Counted from the first letter of the stretch, positions 25,977 through 63,585 are shown. The stretch is DNA of 64,000 nt from an uncultured Acidimicrobiia bacterium (GCA_963698385.1 CAVOQP010000010.1:529518-593517); one strand, 5' to 3'. Notes: a model not told the origin generated them from the letters alone. Numbers and translations: made by a program.

Positions 25977-26046
25977 TAGGACTCGGGACTCGGGACTTGG
26001 GACTCGGGACTCGGGACTCGGGACTCGCACCTGGCACCTCGCACGC
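25977..26046. repeat. Tandem heptamer array (GGGACTC) x about 7, then (GCACCTN) x about 3
   Basis: GGACTCGGGACTCGGGACTTGGGACTCGGGACTCGGGACTCGGGACTCGCACCTGGCACCTCGCAC. Confidence 0.8.
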
Positions 26047-26184
26047 GATACTTTCTCCATGTACTCCGACGGCCCGACCCGGCTCAGACCCGACGCTCTT
26101 CGCCTCGTGGCGGCCTGCCCCGCCTCCTCGCTTCCCCGTCGCACGAAGAAGCCCGACAATGCCCTCCTTCGATGGAAGGTGGCC

Positions 26185-27474
26185 ATGGACGCCATCACCC
26201 AGTGGTACCGGGCGGGAACCCCCGAGGACGTCGACCAGATCGAACGAGACCTCTTCGCCGCCCTCGACCCCGTCCAGCGCGACGTGACGAGCCGGGCGTT
26301 CCGGGCCTGGCGGGAGAGCGTCGGTAGGGGTGGCACCATCGGATTCGATGCGGTGGGCCCGTCTGTCGTCTCCGAGGATGAGGCGTACTACCTCACTTCG
26401 GCCATCCAGCTGACATTGACCGACGACGACGGGACCGTCGAACACATCAAAGTCAAGCTGCGTACGCCGACGGGCGAGGACGAACGGGCGATCATCACGC
26501 TCGGAGCCGAGCCGGGCATCGACTACCTCGAAGTCATCCTCGACCCGGGTCAAGTGGACTCCCTCCTGATCGACCGGGGGCGGGCTCAGGAAGTCATCGC
26601 CGAGCTCTTCGCGATGGGGAAGCAGGAGTTCGACAAGAACGACCACGTCGGCGGTCGCCACTGTTGGTGGTGCGACCGGGCTTCGCTGTGCAAGCAGTAC
26701 CCGCCCCTCGGCGACAGCGCGCCGCCTTCGGGGACGAAGAGCCTCGTCCTCGGGAAGGGCACCCTTTCCCGGCTCCCCGAGTGCCCCCGGCGGGTTTCGT
26801 GGAAGGCGATCTTCCAGTTCGCCGACGAACGCTCTGACACCGACGACACCAGTCCGGCCCTCGCCATGGGCAATCACTTCCATGCGGCGATCGCCGGAGC
26901 CCTCCTGGACGCGGACCCCGACGGCGTGATGCGCTCCCATGCCCTCGCATTGGCGGCCTCCGAACAATCGGAGTTCCTCTCCCTATGGGACACGCACCGC
27001 TCCCTCGCGGAGGCAGAACCCGACCCTGTGGAGTTCTCCCGGACGGAGCTCCCCATCGGCTGCACGGCGCCTGCATTCACTGGAGGTGAGGCCACGGCCG
27101 TGACCTTCCTGGGGATCGTCGACGCCGGGGGCCGGGAGAGCGATGGCACCCCGGCGATCGTGGAGCACCGCACCACCATGCGCCGCGACCTCCCCTACCT
27201 CGAACAGGAGCTCTACGCCGTTGCCGGGGCGCTGGCGGTGAAGTCGGACCGGATCGCGGTACACCATCATTGGCTTCGGTCGCCCGTGGACGAGGCGTGT
27301 ACCCGACGCCTGTTCGAGCCGGGGGACCTCGAGCAGGCCCGCGACGCCCTCGTGGCGGCGGCGGGGGTGATCGCCGGCTGGGACCGGGAAGACGCCACCC
27401 ACGCCCCGCACGTCGTTGGGGAGTGGTGCGCCTTCTGCCCGTATCGGGTGCTCTGCACCCGCCACCGCACCTGA
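26185..27474 (+). CDS. PD-(D/E)XK (RecB/Cas4-like) nuclease-family protein with putative Fe-S Cys cluster in C-terminal half; N-terminal half unknown
   Basis: GGAAGG RBS then ATG at 26185. C-terminal half has GIVDAG...AIVEHRTT..EQELY (D/E-x-K and QxxY-like motifs). Terminal CAFCPYRVLC (Cx2Cx5C) plus an earlier HCWWCDRASLC. Confidence 0.45.
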   Translation: MDAITQWYRAGTPEDVDQIERDLFAALDPVQRDVTSRAFRAWRESVGRGGTIGFDAVGPSVVSEDEAYYLTSAIQLTLTDDDGTVEHIKVKLRTPTGEDERAIITLGAEPGIDYLEVILDPGQVDSLLIDRGRAQEVIAELFAMGKQEFDKNDHVGGRHCWWCDRASLCKQYPPLGDSAPPSGTKSLVLGKGTLSRLPECPRRVSWKAIFQFADERSDTDDTSPALAMGNHFHAAIAGALLDADPDGVMRSHALALAASEQSEFLSLWDTHRSLAEAEPDPVEFSRTELPIGCTAPAFTGGEATAVTFLGIVDAGGRESDGTPAIVEHRTTMRRDLPYLEQELYAVAGALAVKSDRIAVHHHWLRSPVDEACTRRLFEPGDLEQARDALVAAAGVIAGWDREDATHAPHVVGEWCAFCPYRVLCTRHRT

Positions 27475-27583
27475 GCCGCAGCACCCGGCACCCGGTCAGA
27501 ACCGACCTCGACCGACTGGCTTCCCGTCGTCGGGACCAATGCGGATCCATCGGCATAGCGATTCGTGCAGTCTCGCCACTGAA

Positions 27584-27601
27584 TTGTGAAACGGATTACA
27601 A
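27584..27601 (+). promoter_or_regulatory. Candidate Rex-type operator TTGTGAA-ACGG-ATTACAA upstream of nsrR-nosZ
   Basis: 12/14 match to the Rex operator consensus TTGTGAA-N4-TTCACAA, 33 nt upstream of the nsrR start. It could alternatively be the Rrf2 site. Confidence 0.35.
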
Positions 27602-27633
27602 TCGGATATAGACTCCGGGAGTCAACAACTCTC

Positions 27634-28026
27634 ATGCGACTCGAACTCACCAGGAAGACCGACCTAGCCCTCCGAGTGCTCAGGGCACTCTCCGGGAAGG
27701 GCCGCGTCCCACGGAAGGACCTTGCCGATCAGGCCGGGACCACGCCGCAGTTTCTCGCTCGGGTGATGAGTCCGCTCGTGAAGAGCGGTCTGGTCGAATC
27801 CAAGCCGGGGACTGCCGGTGGCTACGCCCTCGTGAGCGACCCCTGCACCATCTCGGTGCTCGACCTGATCGAAGTGATGGAGGGGCCGGTCATCAACGGG
27901 CGATGTGTGCTGCAGGGAGGGCTGTGTCCCGCCGACGGGAACTGCTCACTCCACACGGCCTGGTCGAGGGCTCGGGAAGCACTGATGGAAGAACTGAACG
28001 CCACAACCGTGGCGGACTGCAACTGA
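27634..28026 (+). CDS. nsrR: Rrf2-family transcriptional regulator with three-Cys Fe-S ligand set (NsrR/IscR-like)
   Basis: MRLELTRKTDLALRVL wHTH domain, then C..x..C..x..C (CVLQGGLCPADGNCSLH). Directly upstream of nosZ. Confidence 0.75.
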   Translation: MRLELTRKTDLALRVLRALSGKGRVPRKDLADQAGTTPQFLARVMSPLVKSGLVESKPGTAGGYALVSDPCTISVLDLIEVMEGPVINGRCVLQGGLCPADGNCSLHTAWSRAREALMEELNATTVADCN

Positions 28027-28044
28027 GGAGAAGGAGAACCCCTC

Positions 28045-30048
28045 ATGTCCGGACTGGACACGCCGGTGGAGCGTAAGCGCATCACGTGGCAAACCCTGCT
28101 GGCGATTGCCAGCGTGCTCATGCTGATCTTCGCGGCCTGTACGTCAGGTTCGAGTACTGCAGATGTCGGTGCCGACATCATCGAGGCTCGCGGCCTGACC
28201 GATGCCGACGTCGAAGCTGCCCTGAAGACCTTCACCCCTTCGGGTACCCACGACGAATACCTCCTGTTCGCCTCCGGCGGACACGGTGGCCAGATCGGCA
28301 TCATCGGTGTGCCGTCGATGCGCCTCCTGAAGGTGATCGCCGTGTTCACACCCGAACCCTGGCAAGGCTGGGGCTACGGCGACCTGAAGACAGAAGAAGT
28401 CCTGTCCTCCGGCGACGTCAACGGCATCGAGGTCCGTTGGGCCGACACCCACCACCCCGCCCTCTCCGAGACCGGCGGCGACTACGACGGCCAGTTCGTA
28501 TTCATCAACGACAAAGCCAACGCCCGCATCGCGGTCGTCGATCTTCGCGACTTCGAGACGAAGCAGATCGTCAAGAACCCCATCGCCATCAATGACCACG
28601 GCGGGACCATGGTCACCCCCGACACCGACTGGATCATCGAAGGCGGGCAGTACGCCACACCGCTGGCCGGTGAGTGGGCACCGATCGAGGACTACGTCGA
28701 GTCCTACCGCGGCATGGTGACGTTCTGGAAGTTCGATCGGGATAGCGGCCGCGTCCTCGAGGACCAGTCCTTCGCCATGGAACTCCCGCCCTACTGGCAG
28801 GACCTGTGTGACGCCGGCAAGCTCGTCTCCGACGGATGGGTGTTCTGCAACTCCTTCAACGTCGAGATGGCAACCGGTGGTGTCGAGGACGGCAACCCGC
28901 CATTCGAGGCCGGTGCATCGGCGCGCGACAACGACTATCTCCATGTCATCAATCTCGAGGCCGCCGTGGCAGCGAGGGATGCTGGCAAGACCGTCGACAT
29001 GAACGGCTTCCCCGTCATCGAGCTGCAAACCAGCATCGACGAGGGCCTGCTCTACTTCGTGCCAGAGCCCAAGAGCCCACATGGTGTCGACATCACCCCC
29101 AAGGGCGACTACCTCGTCATCTCCGGCAAGCTCGACCCGCACAGCACGATCTACTCATTCGAGAAGATCCAGCAGGCGATCGCGGACGAGAACTGGACCC
29201 CCGACGAGTTCGGTGTGCCGGTCCTCGACTTCGACGCGGTGCTCGAGGCCCAGGTCGAGTTGGGACTCGGTCCGCTCCACACCCAGTTCGACGACAAGGG
29301 CTACGCCTACACGTCGCTCTTCCTCGACTCGGCCGTCGCACGTTGGACCCTCGGGCCCAACTACGACCCACCTGAGGAGCCATGGACCCTGGTGACGAAG
29401 ACCCCGGTGCAGTACAACGTCGGTCACCTTGTCACCGCAGAAGGAGACACCGTCTCACCGGACGGCAAGTACCTGGTGTCACTGAACAAGTGGGCGATCG
29501 ACCGCTTCGCCGACGTCGGCCCGCTGCTCCCGCAGAACTTCCAGCTGGTCGACATCTCCCAAACCGGAGAGACGATGCCGGTGATCTACGACATGCCGAT
29601 CGGGTGGGGCGAACCGCACTACGCGCAGATCATCAAGGCTGACAAGCTGAACGCATGGCAGACGTACCCAGAGGTCGGCTTTGACCCCGGCACGATGTCG
29701 GTTGACCCCGACGCCCCCCAGTTGGGCAACGAGCGGATCGAGCGCAATGGCACCGAAGTGGAGATCTGGATGACCGCCATCCGCTCACACTTCACGCCCG
29801 AGCATGTCTCGCTCAAGCAGGGTGACCATGTCATCTGGCACATCACCAACGTGGAAACGTCCCACGACGCCACCCACGGCTTCGCGCTGCCAGGCTACAA
29901 CGTCAACCTCTCACTGGAACCAGGCGAAACGGCGTCGTTCGAGTTCGATGCAGTGAACGCAGGTGTGTACACCTACTACTGCACGGAATTCTGCTCCGCC
30001 CTCCACTTGGAGATGACGGGATACCTCATGATCGAGCCAAACTCCTAA
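28045..30048 (+). CDS. nosZ: Nitrous-oxide reductase, Sec/lipoprotein-type signal (clade II-like)
   Basis: Seven-blade propeller region and C-terminal CuA cupredoxin motif HGF...CTEFCSALHLEM. N-terminus has lipobox LIFAAC and no twin-arginine. Confidence 0.9.
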   Translation: MSGLDTPVERKRITWQTLLAIASVLMLIFAACTSGSSTADVGADIIEARGLTDADVEAALKTFTPSGTHDEYLLFASGGHGGQIGIIGVPSMRLLKVIAVFTPEPWQGWGYGDLKTEEVLSSGDVNGIEVRWADTHHPALSETGGDYDGQFVFINDKANARIAVVDLRDFETKQIVKNPIAINDHGGTMVTPDTDWIIEGGQYATPLAGEWAPIEDYVESYRGMVTFWKFDRDSGRVLEDQSFAMELPPYWQDLCDAGKLVSDGWVFCNSFNVEMATGGVEDGNPPFEAGASARDNDYLHVINLEAAVAARDAGKTVDMNGFPVIELQTSIDEGLLYFVPEPKSPHGVDITPKGDYLVISGKLDPHSTIYSFEKIQQAIADENWTPDEFGVPVLDFDAVLEAQVELGLGPLHTQFDDKGYAYTSLFLDSAVARWTLGPNYDPPEEPWTLVTKTPVQYNVGHLVTAEGDTVSPDGKYLVSLNKWAIDRFADVGPLLPQNFQLVDISQTGETMPVIYDMPIGWGEPHYAQIIKADKLNAWQTYPEVGFDPGTMSVDPDAPQLGNERIERNGTEVEIWMTAIRSHFTPEHVSLKQGDHVIWHITNVETSHDATHGFALPGYNVNLSLEPGETASFEFDAVNAGVYTYYCTEFCSALHLEMTGYLMIEPNS

Positions 30049-30071
30049 ACGCAACGAAGACTGGAGAAACG

Positions 30072-30728
30072 ATGGAGGCCACCAATCGTTTCCTCGGCCC
30101 CCGGGTCCCGAAAGAGACCCGGGGGCGGAGGGAATTCAGACTCCCTACGATCTTCTTCGTCAGCGCAGCCGTGCTGTTGTTGGCGTCGATCTTCGTTCCC
30201 TACTGGCGCCTGAACCTTGCCGCGCCCCAGTTCCCCAAGGGACTCATCGTCGACATCTACGTCAACGAGATGGCCGGGGACGTCGACCTCCTCGAGGGGC
30301 TCAACCACTATGTGGGACTCCCCGGGTTCGACGAAGGCGCGACACTCGAGCGCCAGATCGCCGTTGCCGGCATCCTGGCGGTCGTGGGTGCGCTCGCAGC
30401 GGGATTGTTCATCCACAGCAAATGGATCGTCCTGTTCACGCTTCCCACGCTCACGTTCCCGCTGGTGTTCCTGGCTGACCTTCAGTATTGGCTCTGGCAC
30501 TACGGGCACTCGCTCGACCCACTGGCACCGTTCGCCAGCGCCGTCGGCGAGTTCACCCCACCGGTGCTGGGACCATCCAAGATCGCCCAGTTCGACACCA
30601 TGGCCCTACCCCACGTCGGCCTCATCATGGCCTTCACCGCCACCGCACTCGTGATCCTCGGCCTTCGGGCCCATCGCAAGGTGTACGAGCCGTTGTTCGA
30701 GGCAGCCGATGAGGCACCGGTTGCATAG
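30072..30728 (+). CDS. NosB-like integral membrane protein (clade II nos accessory)
   Basis: 218 aa, about 5-6 TM, immediately after nosZ as in clade II clusters. Confidence 0.55.
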   Translation: MEATNRFLGPRVPKETRGRREFRLPTIFFVSAAVLLLASIFVPYWRLNLAAPQFPKGLIVDIYVNEMAGDVDLLEGLNHYVGLPGFDEGATLERQIAVAGILAVVGALAAGLFIHSKWIVLFTLPTLTFPLVFLADLQYWLWHYGHSLDPLAPFASAVGEFTPPVLGPSKIAQFDTMALPHVGLIMAFTATALVILGLRAHRKVYEPLFEAADEAPVA

Positions 30729-32166
30729 GCGCCCGGGTACAGGGCCCATCGGTCGAGCGGCGCACCTCAAGGCGCCGAAACGGTCGGGGTACCTGCTGCC
30801 CGGCGGGTCCCGCACGCTCACCCGTCTCCTGGTGGTGGTGCTCGTCGTGGCCGGCGTGGCGACGACCTCCCCGGCACACGCGGTGGACGACCTCCAGGGC
30901 CTCATCGACGGCGCCGAGGCCGGGTCGGAGCTCCTGGTCCCGGCCGGGACGTACAGCCCGATCGTCATCGACAAGCCGATCACCCTCCAGGGCATCGGCA
31001 ACCCTGTCATCGACGGCCACGGAGAGGGAACCGTGGTCACCATCAACGCCGACGACGTCACCATCACCGGCTTCACGATCCGGTCGTCCGGCCGATCTCT
31101 CGACCACGAGGATTCCGGCGTCTTTGCCCAAGGCGCCAGGATCACCGTCACCCACAACGTCTTCGAGGACGTCCTCTTCGGCATCTACCTACGCCTCGGA
31201 GAGGACTCGGTCATCACTCACAACGTCATCGGAGCCAAGGATCTCGAGTCGGGGCGACGCGGGGATCCCGTGAAGCTCTGGGAGAGCCCGCGCACACTCT
31301 TTGCCGACAACTCCGTCCAGAGCGGCCGTGACGTCGTGCTCTGGTACTCCGAGGGGATCGTCATCCGGGACAACGTGATCCAGGACGGTCGCTACGGCCT
31401 CCACTTCATGTACAGCCACGACGCCATGGTCTCTGGCAACACGCTCCGGGACAACTCTGTCGGGGCGTTCCTCATGTACTCCTACAACTTGACCTTCAAC
31501 GACAACCTCGTCGTGGGCAACCACGGGCCATCCGGGTACGGGATGGGGCTCAAGGACATGGACGGCGTGGAGGCGTCCGGCAATGAGTTCATCGGCAACC
31601 GCATTGGGATCTACCTCGACAACTCCCCCACCAAGGTCGACCTCATCCAACACTTCACCGACAACCTCATCGCCCACAACGACGTCGGTGTCATGCTGCT
31701 TCCCGCTGTCCAAGGCAACGTGTTCTCGGGCAACGCCTTCGTCGAGAACCGCGAACAGGTCGGCGTTGCCGGATCCGGTACCCCTCGCAACAACGATTGG
31801 GCGGCCAACGGCATCGGCAACCACTGGAGCGACTTCGCCGGCTATGACGCCGACGGCGACGGGTTGGGAGACATCCCCCACCGGGTCGACGACCTCTTTT
31901 CTGCCCTCACCGATACGAAGTCCGAACTCATGATCTTCTCCGGGTCGCCCGCAGCCAGGCTCATCGACGCCGCCGCCAGGGCCTTCCCGACGCTCCGACC
32001 CGAACCGAAGGCGATCGACCCTTCGCCCCTCGTGGATCTCCCCTCGTTTGCCGCGCCCTCGGGGGCGTCGGCGCCCTTCGGCGTTACGCTCCTCGGGACC
32101 CTCCTCCTTGGGCTGGCAGCACTCATCGTCACCGCCGGTCGCCCACGCCGGGAGCTCCGCCCATGA
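30709..32166 (+). CDS. nosD: NosD, periplasmic right-handed beta-helix copper-processing protein
   Basis: Repeated beta-helix motifs (NVI.DN..G.., GNR.G.YL.NS) with signal peptide. Confidence 0.85.
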   Translation: MRHRLHRRPGTGPIGRAAHLKAPKRSGYLLPGGSRTLTRLLVVVLVVAGVATTSPAHAVDDLQGLIDGAEAGSELLVPAGTYSPIVIDKPITLQGIGNPVIDGHGEGTVVTINADDVTITGFTIRSSGRSLDHEDSGVFAQGARITVTHNVFEDVLFGIYLRLGEDSVITHNVIGAKDLESGRRGDPVKLWESPRTLFADNSVQSGRDVVLWYSEGIVIRDNVIQDGRYGLHFMYSHDAMVSGNTLRDNSVGAFLMYSYNLTFNDNLVVGNHGPSGYGMGLKDMDGVEASGNEFIGNRIGIYLDNSPTKVDLIQHFTDNLIAHNDVGVMLLPAVQGNVFSGNAFVENREQVGVAGSGTPRNNDWAANGIGNHWSDFAGYDADGDGLGDIPHRVDDLFSALTDTKSELMIFSGSPAARLIDAAARAFPTLRPEPKAIDPSPLVDLPSFAAPSGASAPFGVTLLGTLLLGLAALIVTAGRPRRELRP

Positions 32167-33017
32167 TCTCCATCACGAACCTCACCAAGCGCTACGGCTC
32201 CCAACTGGCGCTTGACGACGTGTCGATCGAGATCCCCGCCGGCGACGCGATCGCGCTCTGGGGCCACAACGGCGCCGGCAAGACGACCATCGTCCGCTCG
32301 ATCCTCGGCCTCATCCACTACCAGGGCGGGATCACGGTCGGCGGTCATGACGCGTTCTCGGAGGGGATCGCCGTTCGCCACCTCATCGGCCATGTACCCC
32401 AGGAACTCTCCTTCCACGATGAACTCACCGTGGCGGAGACGATGGAGTTCTCCTGCGCCCTCAAGGGCGTCAGCGGCGCACGGGCCAGGGAAGTCCTGGC
32501 CCAGGTGGGACTCGAGGGAGAGCTCGGCAAGAGGGTCGGGGCCCTCTCCGGGGGAATGAAGCAGCGCCTCGCCATCGGCCTCGCCCTGCTGGCCAACCCA
32601 CCCGTCCTGCTCCTCGACGAGCCGACCTCCAACCTGGATGCGGCCACCCGCGAGCAGATGGTCCACGTGCTGCAGGACCTGAAATCCGAGCAAAGGACCC
32701 TGGTACTCACCTCCCACAACCTCGGGGAAGTCGGCCTGCTGGCAGACCGGGTCATCACCCTCGAACACGGCCGAGTCGTGCTCGAATGCAGCCCCGGCGA
32801 ACTCGACGCGAAGCTCGGGATCTCGACCTGGCTCCATGTCACCGTCAAACAAGACGAGATCAGCCGAGCCATCGAGGCGATCCTCGGGATTGGCATGAAG
32901 GCTCGCAGCAACGGGACCGGCATCCTCGTCGAGGCGCCCGCCCAGGAGAAGGCCAAGGCCCTCGCGGTACTCGCCGCAGCCGGTGTCGATGTCCAGGACT
33001 TCGAGGTGTGGCGATGA
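32163..33017 (+). CDS. nosF: NosF ABC transporter ATP-binding protein
   Basis: GHNGAGKTT Walker A, LSGGMKQRLAIG signature, LLLDEPTSNLD Walker B. Confidence 0.85.
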   Translation: MISITNLTKRYGSQLALDDVSIEIPAGDAIALWGHNGAGKTTIVRSILGLIHYQGGITVGGHDAFSEGIAVRHLIGHVPQELSFHDELTVAETMEFSCALKGVSGARAREVLAQVGLEGELGKRVGALSGGMKQRLAIGLALLANPPVLLLDEPTSNLDAATREQMVHVLQDLKSEQRTLVLTSHNLGEVGLLADRVITLEHGRVVLECSPGELDAKLGISTWLHVTVKQDEISRAIEAILGIGMKARSNGTGILVEAPAQEKAKALAVLAAAGVDVQDFEVWR

Positions 33018-33847
33018 ACGGGCACTGGAACGCCATCCGAACCGTGGCCCGCAAGGAACTGCGGGAATCGATCCGCAACCGTTGGTTGTGGGCCATGGCC
33101 TCCGGCTTCGCACTCATCGCAGTAGCTCTCACCCTCGTGGGGCTTCCCGGCGCCCGAACCGTGGGGGCCGGGGGGTTCGGGCGCACCGCGGCGTCGTTGG
33201 TGGCCCTTGCCCAGCTCATGGCACCGCTCCTCGGGCTCACGGTGGGTGCCCAGGCGCTGGCCACGGCACGTGAGCGGGGGACCCTTCGCTTCGTGCTGTC
33301 ACACCCAATCGGCCGCTCCGACGTCCTCGCAGGGATGTTCCTGGGCTTGGGGAGCGCGGTCTGGGCGGCCGTGCTTGCCGGGTTCGGCGCCGCTGCGCTG
33401 GTGAGCGCGGCCCTGGGCTCCGCGGGACCGGCCGCGGTCGTCTTCACACTCACGGTCCTCTCCGGGTTGCTCGCCACGGCAATGCTCGCCCTCGGGATGG
33501 CCATCGGTGCCGGGAAGCGCGAGGCCTCCACGGCCCTCGGCACGGCCATCTTCATCTGGCTGCTGCTCGTGTTCGCAGGGGACCTGGGAATCATGGGGTC
33601 GGCCATTGCCGTCAAGATGCCGGTGAGCATCCTGTTCTTCTCGGTGATGATCAACCCGGTGGAGGCCTTCCGCATGCTGGCTGTGCCGTTCTTCGCCACA
33701 TCACTCGACGTGCTCGGGCCCGCCGGCTCCTATGCAGTCGACACACTGGGGTCCTTGGCACCCGCCACCGGCGCAGTGGTGTTGGCAGCGTGGATCGTCA
33801 TCCCCGGCGTGTTTGCATTGCGGCGATTCAATCGGAGTGACTTCTGA
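33014..33847 (+). CDS. nosY: NosY ABC-2 type permease
   Basis: 6 TM. ATG overlaps the nosF stop (ATGA). Confidence 0.8.
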   Translation: MNGHWNAIRTVARKELRESIRNRWLWAMASGFALIAVALTLVGLPGARTVGAGGFGRTAASLVALAQLMAPLLGLTVGAQALATARERGTLRFVLSHPIGRSDVLAGMFLGLGSAVWAAVLAGFGAAALVSAALGSAGPAAVVFTLTVLSGLLATAMLALGMAIGAGKREASTALGTAIFIWLLLVFAGDLGIMGSAIAVKMPVSILFFSVMINPVEAFRMLAVPFFATSLDVLGPAGSYAVDTLGSLAPATGAVVLAAWIVIPGVFALRRFNRSDF

Positions 33848-34443
33848 TGACCCCCCACCGAGCCCGAGCGTCGAGCCCGAGCCAGCGGCGCCGAAGCCCA
33901 CACGTGCTCGTGCTGGTGCTCGCGCTCGGGCTGTTCGCGGCCGCCTGCTCCACCTCCGTCAACCTCGATGAACCGCCTGGGCTGAACGTCGGCCGGGACA
34001 TCTGCGCCCGGTGCGGCATGATCATCGAGGACGTCAGGTTCGCCGCCGGCTTTCGGCTTGAGGACGGCACGTCCCGGGTGTTCGACGACATCGGCGGGAT
34101 GTTGGCATGGGGCAAGCTCTCCGGAGAACTCGAAGGGGCCCGCGTCTGGGTCCACGACTACCACTCGGAGTCGTGGGTCGATGCGACGACCGCTACATTT
34201 GTCCTGTCATCCGATATCCCGACGCCGATGGCGTTCGGCATCGCCGCCTTCTCCACCAGGGAGGCAGCGGAGGCCTTCGCCCAGGAGTTGGATGCCATGG
34301 TCCACAGCTGGGACGATGTCTCGGCCATGGGCGAGGCAGGAGAACTCGAAGATCACCACGGCGAAGGAGCCGAGGGAGCCAACGCAGACCATGCAACCCA
34401 TGCGTCCGAGTCGGAGGTAGAGCATGCACACACTGATTCCTAA
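33847..34443 (+). CDS. nosL: NosL copper-chaperone lipoprotein
   Basis: Lipobox LFAAAC and DICARCGMII motif. Confidence 0.8.
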   Translation: MTPHRARASSPSQRRRSPHVLVLVLALGLFAAACSTSVNLDEPPGLNVGRDICARCGMIIEDVRFAAGFRLEDGTSRVFDDIGGMLAWGKLSGELEGARVWVHDYHSESWVDATTATFVLSSDIPTPMAFGIAAFSTREAAEAFAQELDAMVHSWDDVSAMGEAGELEDHHGEGAEGANADHATHASESEVEHAHTDS

Positions 34444-34468
34444 CCGGAACCCAAGAAAGGAACCAACC

Positions 34469-34873
34469 ATGAAGAAGAGCACGATCGCGATCCTCTTCAC
34501 TGTCCTCGCTCTGATGGTCGCCGCGTGCGGCGGCGGGAGTGACGGCGACGGTGGGACCGCCGCGACCGAAGCTCCATCCGGAGCCGGCTCCGGCGGCGAT
34601 GCAGCCAACGGCGAGAAGGTCTTCGCCGGCACCTGCTCGGCCTGCCACGGTGCAGACGCAATGGGCATCGACGGTCTCGGCAAGCAGCTTGTCGAGTCCG
34701 AATTCGTCGCGAGCCAATCCGACAGTGAGCTTTTCACGCTCATCACGACCGGACGCCCCTCAAGCGATCCCCTCAACACGACAGGCGTCGACATGCCTCC
34801 CAAGGGCGGCAACCCTTCGCTCAACGATGCGGCGATTGCCGATCTCGTCGCCTACCTCAGGTCCCTGGCCTAG
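34469..34873 (+). CDS. Mono-heme c-type cytochrome lipoprotein (probable electron donor to NosZ)
   Basis: AAAGGAACCAACC then ATG. Lipobox LMVAAC and CSACHG heme-binding motif. Confidence 0.75.
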   Translation: MKKSTIAILFTVLALMVAACGGGSDGDGGTAATEAPSGAGSGGDAANGEKVFAGTCSACHGADAMGIDGLGKQLVESEFVASQSDSELFTLITTGRPSSDPLNTTGVDMPPKGGNPSLNDAAIADLVAYLRSLA

Positions 34874-34882
34874 TCCCAGGTG

Positions 34883-34903
34883 AGGCCGCCCTCTGGGCGG
34901 CTT
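34883..34903 (+). terminator. Terminator hairpin AGGCCGCCC-TCT-GGGCGGCTT
   Basis: 9-bp stem, 10 nt after the stop of the cytochrome c gene. Confidence 0.55.
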
Positions 34904-35082: not shown

Positions 35083-36180
35083 TTGCCCATGCGCGCAGCG
35101 GCCCTCTTCGAGCAGCCAGGAGTCCTTCGGCTCGTCGACGTCGAGATCGATGGCCCCCAGCCCCACGAAGTCCTCGTTCGTACCGCCGCCTGCGGACTCT
35201 GCCATAGCGACCTCCACGCCTTGACCGGCGATGTACCCGCCCACCTGCCGTCGGTCCTTGGTCATGAAGCCGCAGGCGTGGTCGAAGCCGTCGGGGAGTC
35301 GGTGACGGGCTTCGCGGCGGGTGACCACGTGGTGGCCTGCATCACCCCCTATTGCGGTTCGTGCGCGGCCTGCAATCGCGGAGAGACCTGGCTGTGCCAA
35401 CTGCGCGACCAACCACCCCTCGTGCGAGGGCCCGACGATCGACCCCGACTATGGCACGGTGATGGCCCAGCCAGCCAGTTCTTGGCGATCGCCGGCTTCG
35501 CCGAGCGACTGCTCGTCAGCGAGAGGGCCCTGGTCCGGGTGCCCGATGAGCTGCCGCTGGATCGGGCTTCGCTCCTCGGTTGCGGCACGCTCACCGGCTA
35601 CGGGACCATCGTGAACAAGGCCAGGGTCCGCCCCGGTGAGTCGGTGGTCGTGGTCGGCTGCGGTGGAGTCGGGCTCTCAGCCATCCAGGCCGCTTCGATC
35701 GTTGGGGCCGGCCCGATCATCGCCATCGACATCCACGACCACGCCCTCGACCTTGCCCGGCAGTTGGGTGCCACCGTCACCATCAACTCCTCCGAGGACG
35801 ATGCCAGGAGCATGGTCAAGGCCCTCACCAAGGGCGGGGCCGACCACGTGATCGAAGCCATCGGGCTCCCGTCCACCATGGCGCAGATCGTCGACATGAT
35901 CCGACCGGGCGGAAACGCCTATTGCATCGGGATCGCTCCCATCCCCTCCAAGATGGAGTTGAGTGCCTTCCGCCTGGTGTGGTTCAACCGCAGCGTGCAT
36001 GGCGTGTTCATGGGAGCGAACAACTTCCGACGCGACATCCCCGCCTTGGCCGACCTCTACCTGTCGGGGAAGCTCGACCTCGACCACCTCGTCACCGACC
36101 GCATCACGCTCGATGAGGTGAACACCGGATTCGACGCCATGCGGGCCGGTTCACTCGGCCGCACCGTGGTGATGTTCTAG
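35083..36180 (+). CDS. Zn-dependent alcohol dehydrogenase (MDR superfamily)
   Basis: GHEAAGVVEAVGESV, CGSCAACNRG structural zinc motif, GCGGVGLS NAD fold. Confidence 0.85.
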   Translation: MPMRAAALFEQPGVLRLVDVEIDGPQPHEVLVRTAACGLCHSDLHALTGDVPAHLPSVLGHEAAGVVEAVGESVTGFAAGDHVVACITPYCGSCAACNRGETWLCQLRDQPPLVRGPDDRPRLWHGDGPASQFLAIAGFAERLLVSERALVRVPDELPLDRASLLGCGTLTGYGTIVNKARVRPGESVVVVGCGGVGLSAIQAASIVGAGPIIAIDIHDHALDLARQLGATVTINSSEDDARSMVKALTKGGADHVIEAIGLPSTMAQIVDMIRPGGNAYCIGIAPIPSKMELSAFRLVWFNRSVHGVFMGANNFRRDIPALADLYLSGKLDLDHLVTDRITLDEVNTGFDAMRAGSLGRTVVMF

Positions 36181-36344: not shown

Positions 36345-36445
36345 GGAGTCCCAAGTCCCAAGTCCCGAGTCCCAACAAGCGTTAATCGTCAAGGTACGAG
36401 TCCTGAGCCCCCAGTCCTCGGTCCTCGGTCCTCGGTCCTTGGCTG
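36345..36445. repeat. Tandem heptamer arrays: (GAGTCCC, the reverse complement of GGGACTC) x about 4, then (GTCCTCG) x about 4
   Basis: GGGAGTCCCAAGTCCCAAGTCCCGAGTCCCAAC ... CAGTCCTCGGTCCTCGGTCCTCGGTCCTTGG, between convergent genes. Confidence 0.75.
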
Positions 36446-37690
36446 CTACTTCGCCAACACCGTTCCCGGCGCCTTCTTCACAATGGCTTCGAGGGCCTGG
36501 TAGGCCTGCTCCCCGATTCCCTTCTCCTCCTCGTTGAGGAGATTGGCCATCACCTTGAGGACCCACTCCATGAGCGGTCGCGACCGCAGGCCCACATGGG
36601 TGAGCGTGCGCATGACCGAGGGGTAGCCGATCGCCTTCACGAAGAGACGGGCAAAGCGGTAGTAGTCGCCGTACTCGTCCTGCAGGCTGGCCTCGTACCG
36701 ACCAAGCAGCGTGGGATCATGAGCGTCGATGGCCTCGCCGAGCACCCGGGCGGCGAGATGACCGGTCTCATAGGCGTAGGAGATCCCCTCACCGTTCCAG
36801 GGGTTGATGGCCCCGGCTGCATCGCCGACGATCAGCCAATTCGGACCGGAGCGCGGTCCCACCGAGAGCGCCATCGAGAGCTTTCCGCCCCGGTGCCCCG
36901 TGGGGTTGGTCAGGTCCCAGTAGTCGGGTGAAGAGTCGACGTAGGCACTCATCATGTCGCTCGTGTTGACGTCCTTCCATCGCTTGAACGTCGAGAGGAG
37001 ACCGACGCCGACGTTCACCTGCCCGTCGCCGAGGGGGAAGATCCATCCATAACCCGGCATTGCAGCGCCAGTGGCGTCTCGAATGTCGAGCTGGGACTCC
37101 ATGAAGCGGTCGTCGCTGCGCGGGGAGTCGAAATAGCCGCGGGCGGCGAGGCCCATGGGGTAATCACGACGCCGGTGGGTGCCGAGTTCCCTGCCGACTC
37201 GCGACAGAGAGCCGTCCGCCACCACCACGTAATCGACATCGATCACCTCACTGTCCGTCCCTCGGTCGAGGGTGACCGAGGAGATCCTGCCCCGATCGAC
37301 CTGGACCGAGCCGGTTGTTCGATCGACGATCTTGACGCCCTCGGCCCTGGCCAACTCGGCGACCTGGAGATCAAGATCCCGCCGACGGATGATGCCGCCC
37401 CAGTTCGGGAAGACGGGATGGTCGGGCCAGTCGAGTTCCAGGCAGAGCGAGTCACCGGCGTAGGAGCGGAGACCGGTCACCCGGTGGAAGCCGGGGACGT
37501 CGAAGTCGAACCCCATGCGTTGGAGTTGGTGGATGGCCCGCGGAGTCAAACCGTCCCCACAGGTCTTGTCCCTGGGGAAGCGCTTCTTCTCGATGAGGGT
37601 CACATCGTGACCGGCCTTCGCCAGCCAGAGCGCGGCAGCTGCCCCGCCGGGTCCGGCTCCGATCACTGCGATCCTGGGGGAGGACGACAT
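36446..37690 (-). CDS. Geranylgeranyl-reductase-family FAD-dependent oxidoreductase
   Basis: IAVIGAGPGGAAAALWLAKAGHDVTLIEK dinucleotide fold and GDAAG motif. Confidence 0.8.
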   Translation of the reverse strand: MSSSPRIAVIGAGPGGAAAALWLAKAGHDVTLIEKKRFPRDKTCGDGLTPRAIHQLQRMGFDFDVPGFHRVTGLRSYAGDSLCLELDWPDHPVFPNWGGIIRRRDLDLQVAELARAEGVKIVDRTTGSVQVDRGRISSVTLDRGTDSEVIDVDYVVVADGSLSRVGRELGTHRRRDYPMGLAARGYFDSPRSDDRFMESQLDIRDATGAAMPGYGWIFPLGDGQVNVGVGLLSTFKRWKDVNTSDMMSAYVDSSPDYWDLTNPTGHRGGKLSMALSVGPRSGPNWLIVGDAAGAINPWNGEGISYAYETGHLAARVLGEAIDAHDPTLLGRYEASLQDEYGDYYRFARLFVKAIGYPSVMRTLTHVGLRSRPLMEWVLKVMANLLNEEEKGIGEQAYQALEAIVKKAPGTVLAK

Positions 37691-37786
37691 CGACGGGAAG
37701 GGTACCGCCGGGTCCGGCCTAGCCCGTGGGAGGGACCCGTCCTCGACCCGGCACCGAAGCGTCATCGGGACAATCTCCTACAATCC

Positions 37787-52997: not shown

Positions 52998-53014
52998 CAT
53001 GACAGGGGGCGAGA

Positions 53015-54415: not shown

Positions 54416-54488
54416 CCCACCGGTCCTTCTCACCTGATTCTCAGGGGATCCTCAGGAACCGTTCACACGCGCCGGGCACAGTCACGAC

Positions 54489-55739: not shown

Positions 55740-55748
55740 GGAGCCGCA

Positions 55749-56996: not shown

Positions 56997-57041
56997 ACGG
57001 CCTCCAGCCCGATACATCATCACCTCCGTACCATGTACGTC

Positions 57042-57551
57042 ATGAAGCGATTGCTGCTCCCACTGTTGGCCCTCACGCTCCTGGGGACCGCCTGCGATCG
57101 AGCATCCGACACGACCACCACCACGATGCCCTCGGCCGTGGTCACGACGTCGAGCACCGAGGCACCGGTCGAGACCATCGTCGCCGAGGACACCATCCCT
57201 GAGACCACGACCACCATCGCCTCGTCGGTGATCCACCTCGAGTACCAGGTCCGGTTCAAGGGGACCACCGACGGCAAGACCGTCGTCATCCTCCAGATCG
57301 ACGAGGGAACCGCGACCGACATCGCCCTCGAGTCACTCGCCCGTCAAGCAGTGGACGAGTTCGAGCCGCTCACCGAATTGTTCGTGGTCGACGCCGAGGA
57401 GGCGATAGAGCTCGTCCGCGTCGACCCCAGCTCACTCACCGATGAGGAAAAGAGCGTCCTCGCCCAGCATTGGCTCCTCCACGTCAAGGACGCCGTCCTC
57501 AGCTTCAAGGGGCCGTTCAGCGGCCTCGACGGTTTCATCCTCGGTAGCTGA
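57042..57551 (+). CDS. Hypothetical lipoprotein
   Basis: MKRLLLPLLALTLLGTAC lipobox. Confidence 0.5.
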   Translation: MKRLLLPLLALTLLGTACDRASDTTTTTMPSAVVTTSSTEAPVETIVAEDTIPETTTTIASSVIHLEYQVRFKGTTDGKTVVILQIDEGTATDIALESLARQAVDEFEPLTELFVVDAEEAIELVRVDPSSLTDEEKSVLAQHWLLHVKDAVLSFKGPFSGLDGFILGS

Positions 57552-57666
57552 CCGCGACCTAGCCTCGCGGTGGGCCGTCTGGGTCGATCCATCGCCATGA
57601 GAGGATCCCGAGGGGTCGTGGGATCCGCGGTACGAGCGAGCGGCCGATACCGAATAGGCTGCGCAC

Positions 57667-60173: not shown

Positions 60174-60177
60174 GCGA

Positions 60178-61353: not shown

Positions 61354-61388
61354 CCGGCCGGCCTTCTCGGCGGGTAGGACGGGCATCC

Positions 61389-62429
61389 GTGGCAGACTTC
61401 CCCACGCAAGTGATCATCATCATGCGTCCCCAGGCCCTGGAGTCCGAGATCGACGTTGTCGTTCAGCGACTCAAGGACCACGACTGCAACGCCCACGTGT
61501 CCCGCGGTACGACCCACACCGTGATCGGGGTGGTGGGCGACACACGGACCGTCTTCCAGGCAGCCGGGTGGGAGCGCCTGCCGGGTGTCGAAAAGGTGGT
61601 TCGGGTCATGGAGTCCTACAAGCTCGTTTCACGGAAGTTCCAGCCCGAGTCGACGATCATCACCGTGCGCGGGGTCTCGATCGGGGAAGGTTCCTTCACC
61701 GCTGTCGCCGGTCCCTGTGCCGTGGAGAGCCGAGACCAGCTCTTCCGGACCGCGGAAGCCGTGAAGCAGGCTGGTGCCCGCGTTCTCCGGGGTGACGCCT
61801 TCAAGCCCCGTACATCGCCCTACGCGTTCCAGGGCCTCGGCGAAGAGGGTCTCCAATACCTGGCCGAGGCGCGGGAGGAGTTCGACATGCCGTTCGTGGC
61901 CGAGGTGCTCGACCCTCGCGATGTCGAGCTCGTCGCCTCCTACGCCGACATCCTCCGGGTGGGGACCCGCAACATGGCCAACTACACCCTCCTCCAGGAG
62001 GTCGGGCAGACCAACAAACCAGTCCAGCTCAAGCGTGGATTCACGGCCACCATCGACGAGTGGCTCAACGCGGCGGAGTACATCTTCAAGTCGGGGAACC
62101 CCCAGATCATCATGGTGGAACGGGGCATTCGCACGTTCGAGACTGCGTCCCGCAACACCCTCGACATCACGGCCGTGCCCCTCCTCAAGCACATCTCACA
62201 CCTGCCGGTCATGGTGGATCCCTCCCATTCTGGGGGGCGGCGGGAACTGGTCGCTCCGCTGAGCAGGGCCGGGTTGGCGGCGGGCGCAGACGGGATCATG
62301 GTGGACGTCCATCCCGAGCCGGACTCCGCCAAGGTCGACGGCGCCCAGGCACTCCTCCCCGAGGAGTTCGCCGAGCTGATGGCGGTGCTGCGCAAGCTGG
62401 CAGCGGCGCTCGACGTCACCATGACATGA
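61389..62429 (+). CDS. 3-deoxy-7-phosphoheptulonate (DAHP) synthase, type I-beta, with N-terminal regulatory domain
   Basis: AGPCAVES...KPRTSPY motifs of the KDOPS/DAHPS I-beta family. Confidence 0.85.
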   Translation: MADFPTQVIIIMRPQALESEIDVVVQRLKDHDCNAHVSRGTTHTVIGVVGDTRTVFQAAGWERLPGVEKVVRVMESYKLVSRKFQPESTIITVRGVSIGEGSFTAVAGPCAVESRDQLFRTAEAVKQAGARVLRGDAFKPRTSPYAFQGLGEEGLQYLAEAREEFDMPFVAEVLDPRDVELVASYADILRVGTRNMANYTLLQEVGQTNKPVQLKRGFTATIDEWLNAAEYIFKSGNPQIIMVERGIRTFETASRNTLDITAVPLLKHISHLPVMVDPSHSGGRRELVAPLSRAGLAAGADGIMVDVHPEPDSAKVDGAQALLPEEFAELMAVLRKLAAALDVTMT

Positions 62430-63445
62430 GCCAGGTCGCCATCCTCGGGACCGGCCTCATCGGGGCGTCGATCGGGATGGCCCTGCGCACCCTCCAGCAT
62501 CGAGTGATCGGATGGGATTCGTCAGCCGACGAGGCGTCCGAGGCACTCCTCAAGGGAGCGATCGACCGCATCGCCACCGACAGGTCCGACGCCATCGCCG
62601 GCGCGGACCTCATCGTTCTCGCCGCACCACCGGACGCCATCATCGCCCACTTGGCGGACCTCCAGACCGACGCACTGGTCATCGACGTGGCCGGCGTCAA
62701 GCAGCCCGTTGTCGAGGCTGCAGGCCGGCTTCCCCGCTTCGTCGGAACCCACCCCATGGCCGGGCGGGAGCACGGCGGGGCTCGCCACGCTTCGCCGACC
62801 CTCTTCCGGGGGGCGATGTGGATCATCACGTCTGATCGGGCCACCGAGGCCGACGTTCGAGAGGTGGAGAAGCTCCTCGACCGCATCGGGGCCGTGCCCA
62901 TCGTGATGACTGCCGACGAGCACGACCAGGCCGTCGCCGCCATCAGCCACGTCCCCCAGTCGCTTGCCGTCGCCCTCATCCAACACGCCGCCGAGGACCC
63001 GACCCGCCTCCTTCTCGCCTCTGGCAGCTTTCGCGACCTCACCCGGGTGGCCCTGTCGGGCGAGGGCATGTGGACCGAGATCCTCACCGCCAACAGCCCC
63101 ACCGTCGCCGCGCAGTTGCGTCAGCTGTCAGGTCGAATCGAGGCGTTCGCCGGCCTCATCGAGGGAGGGGACCGGGAGGCGATCACCGACCTGCTCTCCG
63201 AGGCCCGACGACAACGACAGGGCATGGCACCGCCGATGGTGAGCGTCGCCATCATCCTCGAGGATCGCCCCGGGGAGTTGGCCAGGGTCGGCGAGGCATT
63301 CGCCACCTCGCACGTCGACGTCCGGGACCTCCAACTCCGTCACGGACGGCATGGGGGCGGCGGTGTGCTCACGATCTCGGTGCGCCCCGGGGAGGCCGAA
63401 CTCCTCCGGGACGCCCTCCGCAGCCAGGGCTTCGAGCTCGCGTAG
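62426..63445 (+). CDS. tyrA: Prephenate dehydrogenase with C-terminal ACT domain
   Basis: VAILGTGLIGASIG Rossmann fold, HPMAG motif. ATGA overlap with the upstream stop. Confidence 0.85.
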   Translation: MSQVAILGTGLIGASIGMALRTLQHRVIGWDSSADEASEALLKGAIDRIATDRSDAIAGADLIVLAAPPDAIIAHLADLQTDALVIDVAGVKQPVVEAAGRLPRFVGTHPMAGREHGGARHASPTLFRGAMWIITSDRATEADVREVEKLLDRIGAVPIVMTADEHDQAVAAISHVPQSLAVALIQHAAEDPTRLLLASGSFRDLTRVALSGEGMWTEILTANSPTVAAQLRQLSGRIEAFAGLIEGGDREAITDLLSEARRQRQGMAPPMVSVAIILEDRPGELARVGEAFATSHVDVRDLQLRHGRHGGGGVLTISVRPGEAELLRDALRSQGFELA

Positions 63446-63468
63446 CCAGCGCCCGCTTCTACCCGTGA

Positions 63469-63585
63469 CGTGGGACTCGGGACTCGGGACTCGGGACTTG
63501 CTCGGGACCAGGGACTCGGGACTCGGGACTCGCTCGGGACTCGGGACTCGGGACTCGCTCGGGACTCGGGACTTGCCCAGGACTC
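63469..63585. repeat. Tandem heptamer array (GGGACTC) x about 14, with higher-order 25-mer periodicity (GGGACTC x3 + GCTC)
   Basis: GGGACTCGGGACTCGGGACTCGGGACTTGCTCGGGACCAGGGACTCGGGACTCGGGACTCGCTC... Confidence 0.8.

Follow-up and report, generated by a model that had tools for sequence, protein, structure and literature searches.

Tandem arrays of the heptanucleotide GGGACTC at three gene boundaries of an Acidimicrobiia-like genome

We analysed a stretch of 64,000 nucleotides of DNA, here called the window, from an uncultured Acidimicrobiia bacterium. By reading the sequence directly and then running Tandem Repeats Finder (TRF) on the window, we found period-7 arrays at 25978–26044, 36346–36440 and 63472–63586. 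At these three loci, which make up the sample, all period-7 runs are intergenic, although the window is mostly coding. Array 1 lies between co-directional genes, following a gene of 218 amino acids with a TAA stop codon at 25891–25893 and preceding a PD-(D/E)XK gene whose start codon, the ATG at 26059, was set by an N terminus conserved in homologues. Array 2 lies between convergent genes, an alcohol dehydrogenase (ADH) gene and a geranylgeranyl-reductase-family gene at 36446–37765 (stop codon TAG, 36446–36448) for which the minus strand is the sense strand. Array 3 again separates co-directional genes, encoding prephenate dehydrogenase (62426–63445, TAG stop) and an NAD-dependent epimerase (ATG at 63600). 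A reading made earlier from the sequence only had put the arrays at the 3′ ends of genes or between convergent genes, a placement that holds for all three. The genes next to the arrays have housekeeping or metabolic roles and share no functional theme.

Array 1 proper (25978–26026, plus strand) has seven units, AGGACTC, GGGACTC and GGGACTT followed by four copies of GGGACTC; TRF reported it at 25979–26027 with period 7, 7.0 copies and 95% matches. TRF also reported an adjoining block of three GCACCTS-type heptamers on the same strand (26024–26044; GCACCTG, GCACCTC and GCACGCG). The heptamer array ends 32 nt, and the adjoining block 14 nt, ahead of the PD-(D/E)XK start codon. On the upstream side, a short AAGTACG (that is, CGAAGTA) array of 3.4 copies by TRF (25892–25915, plus strand) overlaps the stop codon of the 218-residue gene. 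Array 2 is on the minus strand and has two parts. Array 2a (36346–36373) reads GGGACTC, GGGACTT, GGGACTT, GGGACTC (TRF, 36347–36375, period 7, 4.1 copies), array 2b (36413–36440) reads AAGGACC, GAGGACC, GAGGACC, GAGGACT (TRF, 36414–36439, period 7, 3.7 copies, 100% matches), and the 38-nt gap between them holds two degenerate units, GGGGCTC and AGGACTC (36398–36411, minus strand). Arrays 2a and 2b are quasi-complementary at five of seven positions, giving a long imperfect hairpin. Array 3 (63472–63586, plus strand) has 13 full units of GGGACTC with GGGACTT and GGGACCA variants, grouped 4, 4, 3 and 2 with GCTC between the groups and a degenerate GGACTCC at 63580–63586; TRF reported 15.9 copies of period 7 at 63472–63573. 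At higher order, a 32-nt period fits it best (2.7 copies, 90% matches, score 151). The period of 25 nt described in the sequence-only reading does exist (79% matches), but it fits the third block only and is the poorer of the two. The three arrays have no flanking sequence in common.

A run detector covering periods 4 to 12 returned six long tandem runs at period 7 in the window and none at any other period, and no period-7 run appeared in 100 sequences simulated from the window with a first-order Markov model. As a word, GGGACTC is not over-represented in the whole window (32 copies found versus 26.8 ± 5.6 expected); 20 of those 32 copies fall inside the three arrays. Direct reading, TRF and the simulations thus confirm that the GGGACTC tandem arrays are real, at the same three loci that the sequence-only reading had singled out. 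The earlier reading was also right to set them apart from CRISPR, in which repeats of about 24–48 nt alternate with unique spacers of similar length, whereas these units are 7 nt long, stand head to tail and have no spacers.

For each of the three arrays, the strand rich in G is also the one that is sense for the upstream gene; array 1 starts 84 nt beyond the stop codon, array 2b 5 nt and array 3 26 nt. Between the upstream gene and array 1 there is an intrinsic-terminator-like hairpin of 10 G–C pairs with a T-rich tail (25919–25951, plus strand), and a relative (L139) keeps a comparable hairpin. Lying beyond it, array 1 may perhaps be outside the upstream transcript altogether. Searching for hairpins rich in G+C with a T run behind them gave this one match only, with none in or after arrays 2 and 3. 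We therefore rejected the idea that the arrays are themselves intrinsic terminators, as the sole hairpin with a T run sits upstream of array 1. Just after array 3, the hexamer TAGGAT (63588–63593, plus strand) stands 6 nt 5′ of the epimerase ATG. The sequence-only reading had called a promoter-like motif here; its position is conserved in relatives, as TAGGAT or TAGCCT, but a scan for the sigma-70 consensus after array 3 found nothing. Plausibly, the hexamer is a −10 box of the actinobacterial TANNNT type, serving a leaderless gene, or else an AGGA Shine–Dalgarno sequence.

We compared the orthologous junctions in the closest relatives fetched, which have 72–89% protein identity, and found all three arrays absent. 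The gap between the prephenate dehydrogenase and epimerase genes is 21–54 nt and array-free in six relatives (L123–L128), compared with 154 nt in the window. Array 2 was absent from both relatives in which we looked for it, L129 and L130, where the reductase/ADH junction measures 78 nt and, to the next called gene, 46 nt, compared with 265 nt in the window. The junction between the hypothetical gene and the PD-(D/E)XK gene is 94 nt and array-free in L139. Another relative (L121) carries an array of 4.6 copies of CGAGGTA, and the orthologous site in the window has one copy. Because the arrays are absent from these orthologous junctions, they are, judging from the sequences compared, recent and lineage-specific expansions. 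Their blocks of variant units, the 32- and 25-nt higher-order duplications and their absence from relatives together point to slippage (slipped-strand mispairing) or unequal exchange as the process that added and removed units. The earlier suggestion that the arrays are slippage products and potential strain markers agrees with this absence and with the change in CGAGGTA copy number; a search for DNA of the same species found none, and against relatives at this level of identity the comparison of array lengths gave differences of presence and absence only.

At least 120 genome stretches, spread over many phyla, contain the exact sequence (GGGACTC)4, and period 7 accounted for 185 of the 207 tandem runs in these stretches. 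Isolate and complete genomes, such as those of Xanthomonas translucens DSM 18974 and Luteimonas lutimaris JCM 16916, contain the arrays too. Their polarity is the same as in the window. In other phyla, 73 of 93 arrays had an ORF nearer to the 5′ end of the G-rich strand than to its 3′ end (p = 3e-8), and a stop codon lay within 30 nt of that 5′ end in 41 of 51 arrays, compared with 3 of 43 for the 3′ end; these counts are approximate, as genes were called by a GC3 heuristic and several loci come from the same genomes. From stop codon to array, the median was 7 nt. Neighbouring arrays on opposite strands were convergent in every one of 26 pairs, and the spacers of paired arrays are not homologous. 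In Lysobacterales, arrays are followed by a conserved GGRAAAGC, and inverted pairs occur. Twenty-five arrays in other MAGs, a count that is approximate for the same reasons, lie within 150 nt of a contig end.

We then considered what structures the arrays could form. A canonical motif of four G3 tracts with loops of 1–7 nt is present in all three arrays (at 25985, 36350 on the minus strand, 63472 and 63504), and with at least four consecutive G-tracts an intramolecular G-quadruplex (G4) is formally possible in each. The G4Hunter score is 1.0 for a pure GGGACTC repeat and reaches maxima of 1.20–1.28 in 25-nt windows of the arrays, a value equalled at about 170 other places in the 67% G+C window, and the predicted G-quadruplex potential of the arrays is borderline. 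ViennaRNA, run with G-quadruplex energies, chose a G-quadruplex for none of the sense transcripts and preferred wobble hairpins. The folds of arrays 1 and 3 were no better than those of shuffled sequences (z of +0.9 to +3.1); the array 2 hairpin had a DNA folding energy of −15.7 kcal/mol with a z of −2.39, equalled by one of 200 shuffles. A search of the window for Rfam matches found none. The adjoining heptamer blocks (GAGGACC, GCACCTS and AAGTACG), as well as CGAGGTA in the relative, have no G3 tract. Heptamers that lack such a tract expand too, and the 7-nt periodicity is therefore independent of G-quadruplex formation.

The arrays belong to a published class of G-rich heptamer repeats. Rehm et al. 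(2015; PLoS One, PMC4692102) described G-quadruplex-type heptamers, GGGAATC in Xanthomonas and GGGGAYT in Nostoc, in arrays that are intergenic, biased towards stop-proximal positions on the sense strand and arranged in convergent pairs. CD showed that those arrays form G-quadruplexes in vitro; most are transcribed, and their lengths differ from species to species (PMC4692102). The placement rule for that class is a position no more than about 50 nt beyond a stop codon, the G-rich strand being the coding one, or else ahead of a start codon on the strand that does not code, and its arrays number on the order of a hundred or more per genome. The window arrays likewise consist of G3–4 heptamers with four G-tracts, a bias to non-coding DNA and a post-stop position on the sense strand. 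Both sets have 7-nt units with a G3–4 tract and a short loop, arrays of at least four units, convergent or quasi-inverted pairs and differences in length or presence between related genomes; density is also similar, with 3 loci per 64 kb, counted in the window only, and 186 in the Xcc genome (PMC4692102). They differ in the unit, as GGGACTC is not mentioned in PMC4692102, and in the host, here an Acidimicrobiia-like actinobacterium. The two C residues in each unit lower the computed G4Hunter score (1.0 versus 1.14 and 2.29) and would allow competing hairpins. Neither the published class nor the spread of GGGACTC over many phyla had figured in the sequence-only reading. Thus, the arrays are G-tract-class heptanucleotide microsatellites, built from a run of three or four G residues and three or four other bases, with the unit GGGACTC. 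The repeat class is already known, and the GGGACTC example in an Acidimicrobiia-like genome is new.

Other repeats share some of these features. The REP/BIME elements of enterobacteria are structured intergenic repeats that stabilise the upstream mRNA and frequently lie no more than about 15 nt from a stop codon; each REP is an imperfect palindrome some 35 nt long that carries a conserved GTAG end and owes its mobility to RAYT transposases. Liang, Rudd and Deutscher reportedly found in 2015 that REP elements can affect translation termination. Similar to these elements, the window arrays are multi-copy, intergenic, just past stop codons on the transcript and capable of structure, which offers an analogy for how they might act. 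By contrast, they are tandem 7-mers and non-palindromic save for the quasi-inverted layout of array 2, and with arrays 1 and 3 folding no better than shuffles and the window free of Rfam matches we do not place them among REP/BIME elements; by this analogy, the resemblance is one of position and proposed action, not of membership. The STRR (short tandemly repeated repetitive) heptanucleotides of heterocystous cyanobacteria, said to have been described by Mazel et al. in 1990, are also lineage-specific tandem heptanucleotides scattered in non-coding DNA, but they have other units and belong to another phylum, and we know of no stop-codon polarity for them. The heptanucleotides of Calothrix PCC7601 are cited by Rehm et al. 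(PMC4692102). The TAACTGA direct repeats of Beggiatoaceae, cyanobacteria and Bacteroidetes (MacGregor 2015, PMC4679880) are, like GGGACTC, intergenic heptamers with the exact unit in distant phyla and a fixed position relative to ORF boundaries, and a role at the RNA level has been suggested for them (PMC4679880). Unlike the window arrays, which are G-rich and lie behind stop codons, they are A/T-rich, number 2–6 copies and precede start codons by a few nucleotides.

Taking the explanation as a whole, we lean, at slightly better than even confidence, towards slippage-made G-tract heptamer microsatellites that act as REP-type 3′ elements. One possible alternative, which we consider rather unlikely, is that the arrays are neutral products of slippage with no effect on the cell, seen where selection leaves them. 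Their recent gain and absence in relatives, the lack of a functional theme among flanking genes, the unexceptional predicted structures and the expansion of heptamers without a G tract all agree with neutrality, as do the Xanthomonas repeats, for which no function was found (Rehm et al. 2015, PMC4692102). However, pure neutrality does not predict the strand polarity seen at stop codons in other phyla, the uniformly convergent arrangement of opposite-strand pairs or the sense orientation of all three window arrays. It is possible that this polarity has a mutational cause.

It is very improbable that the arrays are contingency (phase-variable) loci, in which the number of units switches or grades expression of the downstream gene, which the sequence-only reading had offered as one option. 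In Haemophilus influenzae, the hmw adhesin genes are preceded by heptamer repeats that form such a phase-variable locus, and heptamer repeats in a 5′ untranslated region can grade expression (PMC12721329); the window arrays share with them slippage-prone tandem 7-nt units, and arrays 1 and 3 end 14–32 nt before the PD-(D/E)XK and epimerase starts, upstream of −10-like hexamers. Yet they lie upstream of, and not within, the −10-like box and start region, neither inside ORFs nor between −35 and −10 elements, and they follow stop codons. Array 2, between convergent genes, has no downstream gene to control, and the flanking genes are metabolic, with no link to surface proteins, adhesins or restriction–modification. 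Rehm et al. were likewise negative for their arrays (PMC4692102).

We give an equally small chance to arrays that serve as binding platforms or sponges, with GGGA/GGA in RNA or GANTC-containing units in DNA offering many sites to a protein such as a CsrA/RsmA-like regulator, a G4-binding protein or a methyltransferase. Strict 7-nt spacing and an identical unit in very distant phyla would suit this idea, and each unit holds GACTC/GAGTC, which is rarer than expected in the window (176 found versus 258 ± 15), although at a high genomic G+C content codon bias is expected to make it scarce. Moreover, we found a candidate protein neither in the window nor linked to arrays elsewhere, and the same arrays contain GGGACTT and GGGACCA variants and unrelated heptamers. 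We know of no factor common to the GGGACTC-bearing phyla. Protein binding has been proposed for the TAACTGA heptamer repeats (MacGregor 2015, PMC4679880).

An assembly artefact of a long-read MAG, or the ends of a mobile (MITE-like) element, is scarcely credible. In favour of such origins, one MAG contig of 751 kb supplied the window, arrays in other MAGs are often at contig ends and the Lysobacterales arrays have their conserved motif and inverted pairs. Against them, the flanking genes are also present in a short-read (Logan) assembly of run ERR12037370, made independently, in which one contig runs 133 nt past the reductase stop codon and so through array 2; isolate and complete genomes contain such arrays; and the three window arrays have flanks with nothing in common, while the spacers of paired arrays elsewhere lack homology.

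We therefore return to REP-type 3′ elements as the preferred reading. Read-through transcripts would place a (GGGACUC)n tract right behind the upstream ORF, where it could adopt a three-tetrad G-quadruplex or pair with itself through CUCGGG/CUCGGG helices with G·U wobbles; in array 2, the tract could pair with the neighbouring GAGGACC block. In this form the arrays would most likely be structured punctuation, a brake on 3′ exonucleases or RNA polymerase, and not on/off switches of phase variation. The GGGACTC arrays are a fresh case of a published repeat class and of modest interest. In this organism, such punctuation would insulate the upstream cistron from the next gene, and for arrays 1 and 3, right ahead of a −10-like box and a start codon, array length may tune the gene that follows.

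The sequence-only reading had described tandem GGGACTC heptamers at three intergenic loci, and we confirmed these by direct reading of the three sites and by running Tandem Repeats Finder (TRF) on the whole window. Array 1 (25978–26026, plus strand; 95% matches in TRF) consists of seven units, namely AGGACTC, GGGACTC, GGGACTT and four copies of GGGACTC, and is contiguous with three heptamers of the GCACCTS type that run up to 26044. Just upstream of it, a mini-array of 3.4 copies of AAGTACG overlaps a stop codon. Array 2 lies on the minus strand in two parts, GGGACTC, GGGACTT, GGGACTT, GGGACTC (36346–36373) and AAGGACC, GAGGACC, GAGGACC, GAGGACT (36413–36440), with two degenerate units between them. 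Array 3 (63472–63586) is made of 13 full units, which GCTC splits into blocks of 4, 4, 3 and 2, so that a higher-order period of 32 nt fits it best (TRF, 90% matches, score 151); the period of 25 nt originally proposed for it fits the third block only.

These arrays are far beyond chance and their periodicity is specifically 7. Over periods 4–12, a run detector returned six runs in the window, all of period 7, and no period-7 runs arose in 100 Markov-simulated sequences. Over the whole window, the heptamer GGGACTC shows no excess (32 copies found versus 26.8 ± 5.6 expected), and 20 of the 32 copies fall within the three arrays. Each repeat unit also contains a GANTC site, and about 21 of the 176 GAGTC/GACTC copies in the window lie in the arrays. 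The pentamer is under-represented (176 found versus 258 ± 15 expected from dinucleotide shuffles), probably through codon bias, and we rejected clustering of these sites as a restriction–modification signal on that account. Elsewhere in the window, dense coding-type repeats at 16800–17960 (ACCACG, CCA and, by TRF, 5.5 copies of the 24-nt unit ACCACCACCACGGCAGCCCCGACG) suggest a Thr/Pro-rich low-complexity protein region.

The window, with a G+C content of about 67%, derives from a 751-kb contig of a metagenome-assembled genome (MAG), and homologues of its proteins at 55–70% identity carry the name Acidimicrobiia. The expected position of the arrays at gene 3′ ends was borne out: array 2 lies between convergent stop codons, arrays 3 and 1 lie downstream of a stop, and the G-rich strand of each array coincides with the sense strand of the gene upstream. 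Array 2 starts 5 nt past the TAG of a geranylgeranyl-reductase-family gene (36446–37765, minus strand), on the sense strand of that gene, and faces a convergent zinc alcohol dehydrogenase (ADH) gene that stops at 36180. Array 3 starts 26 nt past the TAG of a prephenate dehydrogenase gene (pdh; true start at 62426, stop at 63445) and is followed by a gene for an NAD-dependent epimerase (ATG at 63600). Array 1 is separated by a strong terminator-like hairpin with a T tail (25919–25951) from the upstream gene, which encodes a 218-aa hypothetical protein (25237–25893), and precedes a gene of the PD-(D/E)XK family. The start of the latter gene is mis-set in the MAG annotation, whose own model (P0245, 429 aa) begins at 26185, 126 nt too late; we placed it at the ATG at 26059 because the first 42 residues (MYSDGP...RWK) are kept in homologues down to 55% identity. 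The GCACCTS block therefore ends 14 nt, and the GGGACTC block 32 nt, before the start codon. Since there is no Shine–Dalgarno sequence between the repeats and this ATG, and a −10-like box (GATACT/TACTTT) lies 4–6 nt upstream of it, the PD-(D/E)XK mRNA may be leaderless.

A promoter-like motif had also been noted after array 3, and it is plausible in modified form. A consensus scan found no match to a sigma-70 promoter downstream of the array, but a TANNNT-type −10 box is possible: TAGGAT is present at 63588–63593, upstream of the epimerase ATG, and either TAGGAT or TAGCCT is conserved 6–8 nt before this ATG across relatives (including loci L123, L125 and L128). The hexamer would fit the actinobacterial TANNNT −10 box of a leaderless epimerase gene, and this fit holds despite pdh ending only 21–54 nt upstream in the relatives. 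Between arrays 1 and 2 lies a complete nitrous-oxide reductase (nos) cluster (27586–34873, plus strand) that encodes an Rrf2-family regulator, NosZ (28045–30048), a hypothetical protein, NosD, NosF, NosY, NosL and a cytochrome c, with a G+C content of 0.63–0.64, somewhat below the 0.67 of the window. We rejected the idea that arrays 1 and 2 mark the edges of a nos-gene island, as its right side is unsupported: the ADH–reductase adjacency is kept without an array in the related locus L129.

Comparison with relatives at orthologous gene junctions points to recent gain of the arrays. Exact-protein look-ups with the window's own genes and an exact junction search of JGI metagenomes found no sequence from the same species; the nearest relatives have 72–89% protein identity, and gene order is kept in all of them. 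The pdh–epimerase gap is 154 nt in the window versus 21 nt (L123 and L124), 25 nt (L125–L127) and 54 nt (L128) in relatives, with no repeat in any of these six gaps. The reductase/ADH gap spans 265 nt in the window versus 78 nt in L129 (89% identity), L130 has a gap of 46 nt after its reductase gene, and neither relative carries a repeat there. In L139, the gap preceding the PD-(D/E)XK gene (94 nt) retains a terminator-like hairpin and has no repeat. A different heptamer, without a G tract, has changed copy number at an orthologous site: L121 (80% protein identity) carries 4.6 copies of CGAGGTA upstream of NAD synthase (positions 20–51), against one GGTACGAG copy at that site in the window (57630–57640). 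Because the arrays are absent from relatives and CGAGGTA is expanded in L121, heptamer arrays of this clade come and go on a short evolutionary scale. The earlier suggestion that the arrays are prone to slippage gains support from their absence in relatives, from the clustering of identical variant units in blocks and from the higher-order duplications of 32 and 25 nt; together with the recent gain and loss, these features make an origin by slipped-strand mispairing or unequal exchange, with recent gain, well supported.

We then considered predicted structure. Each of the three arrays contains the canonical motif of four G3N4 units. As pure repeats, GGGACTC scores 1.0 in G4Hunter versus 1.14 for GGGAATC and 2.29 for GGGGATT, and the maximum over the arrays in 25-nt windows (1.20–1.28) is matched at about 170 other places in the window. 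ViennaRNA with quadruplex energies favours CUCGGG/CUCGGG helices with G·U wobbles and never chose a G-quadruplex (G4); with G4Hunter scores unexceptional for the window, we rejected G4 as the dominant predicted fold. The 7-nt period itself is independent of G4, because the co-resident heptamers GAGGACC, GCACCTS, AAGTACG and CGAGGTA lack G3 tracts. Neither array 1 nor array 3 outdoes shuffled sequences in predicted folding, whether treated as RNA or as DNA. The GAGGACC and GGGACTY blocks of array 2 are complementary to each other at 5 of every 7 positions, and array 2 is therefore predicted to form an extended hairpin with tandem G·A mismatches (−15.7 kcal/mol as DNA, z = −2.39; 1 of 200 shuffles was as good). 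This arrangement resembles the convergent pairs of GGGACTC arrays in other genomes, and array 2 could terminate transcription in both directions between its convergent genes. A known RNA family was ruled out, as no Rfam match reached the gathering threshold anywhere in the window.

Searching one genome per species for exact (GGGACTC)4 gave at least 120 stretches. The majority of the matches listed belong to Lysobacterales (Xanthomonas, Lysobacter, Luteimonas and Rhodanobacter), in which a conserved GGRAAAGC comes after the arrays; the others are from Microbulbifer, Zobellella, Photobacterium, Burkholderia, Geobacter, Hyphomicrobiaceae, Novosphingobium, Vicinamibacterales, Holophagae, Gemmatimonadaceae, Chloroflexi/Dehalococcoidia, Planctomycetota and one Peregrinibacteria MAG. 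None of the 120 matches listed is actinobacterial. Of the 207 tandem runs in these stretches, which total 871 kb, 185 have period 7, and 46 arrays among the matches listed have other units, mostly also with G3–4 (GGGGACT, GGGGACC, GGGACCC and GGGAATC). The four-unit mode of this set is an artefact of querying with four exact units and was discarded as evidence. To score polarity we used a crude GC3-based gene caller on listed loci above 60% G+C, several of which share a genome. By these heuristic calls, 73 of 93 intergenic arrays have the 5′ end of the G-rich strand as the one nearer to an ORF (p = 3e-8). A stop codon facing the 5′ end lies at a median distance of 7 nt and within 30 nt in 41 of 51 cases, whereas one facing the 3′ end lies within 30 nt in only 3 of 43. 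Neighbouring arrays on opposite strands are convergent in all 26 pairs among the matches listed.

Heptamer repeats are over-represented long microsatellites in bacteria, and to our knowledge the G-rich ones have no demonstrated function. The G-rich heptamer phenomenon has already been described in other bacteria: Rehm et al. 2015 (PMC4692102) reported Nostoc repeats with the unit GGGGAYT and Xanthomonas repeats with the unit GGGAATC, the latter numbering 186 and 183 arrays per genome. About 90% of those in Xanthomonas lie between genes, on average 28 nt from the ORF on the near side and 160 nt from that on the far side; the arrays often form convergent pairs, seldom lie between divergent genes, differ in length between Xcc and Xac, are mostly transcribed and form G-quadruplexes in vitro (PMC4692102). 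We assign the arrays of the window with high confidence to this published class of G-tract heptanucleotide microsatellites, from which they differ in unit and in phylum (Actinomycetota); GGGACTC is not mentioned in that study (PMC4692102). Elsewhere, TAACTGA heptamer repeats occur in Beggiatoaceae and cyanobacteria (PMC4679880), and a 2025 survey confirmed short tandem repeats as bacterial indel hotspots (PMC12699852).

What the arrays do is a matter of weighing polarity against structure. The case against pure neutrality rests chiefly on how the arrays are oriented towards stop codons, and a main argument against function is their unremarkable predicted stability. We infer, with moderate-to-low confidence, that they work like REP-type 3′ elements, with the structured tract on the sense strand, immediately past the ORF, as the active part. 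Secondarily, arrays 1 and 3 may also influence the following gene, the −10-like box of which comes directly after the array. The sequence-only interpretation is partly right, in that the repeats are prone to slippage, lie at the 3′ ends of genes and, having no spacers, are not CRISPR. Contingency switches, of which the heptamer repeats that grade hmw expression in Haemophilus (PMC12721329) are an example, are less likely; for the Xanthomonas and Nostoc arrays, Rehm et al. 2015 identified no function and judged phase variation unlikely (PMC4692102). Protein-binding platforms are likewise less likely than REP-type elements. So is an assembly artefact: Logan short-read contigs from run ERR12037370 carry genes identical to those of the window, and by coordinate arithmetic one ends within array 1 (about 26001) and another spans array 2, ending 32 nt beyond it (about 36313). 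Such arrays do coincide with contig ends in short-read assemblies, and 25 arrays among the matches listed lie within 150 nt of one. Mobile-element remnants are less likely given that the three arrays have no common flanking sequence, the 8-nt CGAAGTAG that adjoins arrays 1 and 2 being most simply read as one more of the heptamer units of this genome (CGAAGTA). A phage origin was judged unlikely, as only 8 of 2.9 million viral contigs in IMG/VR carry exact (GGGACTC)4.

A broader proposal, which we regard as improbable, treats (GGGACTC)n as a polar cis-element with a function, the tandem-repeat counterpart of REP elements, and no mutational accident. Gammaproteobacteria, Acidobacteriota, Gemmatimonadota, Chloroflexota, Planctomycetota and Actinomycetota would have recruited the same unit, or received it by transfer, because it acts on universal machinery. 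A G-rich structured tract about 7 nt past the stop codon would then act on the terminating ribosome, on 3′ exonucleases or, through a G4 or R-loop, on RNA polymerase.

The window thus provides an actinobacterial (Acidimicrobiia-like) example of G-rich heptamer repeats with a different unit. Its arrays were gained quickly at tight gene junctions, even within the conserved pdh–epimerase gene pair, and would be usable strain markers if their lengths differ within populations. The identical unit and identical stop-codon polarity across many phyla make a neutral explanation less comfortable and supply a concrete rule to test.
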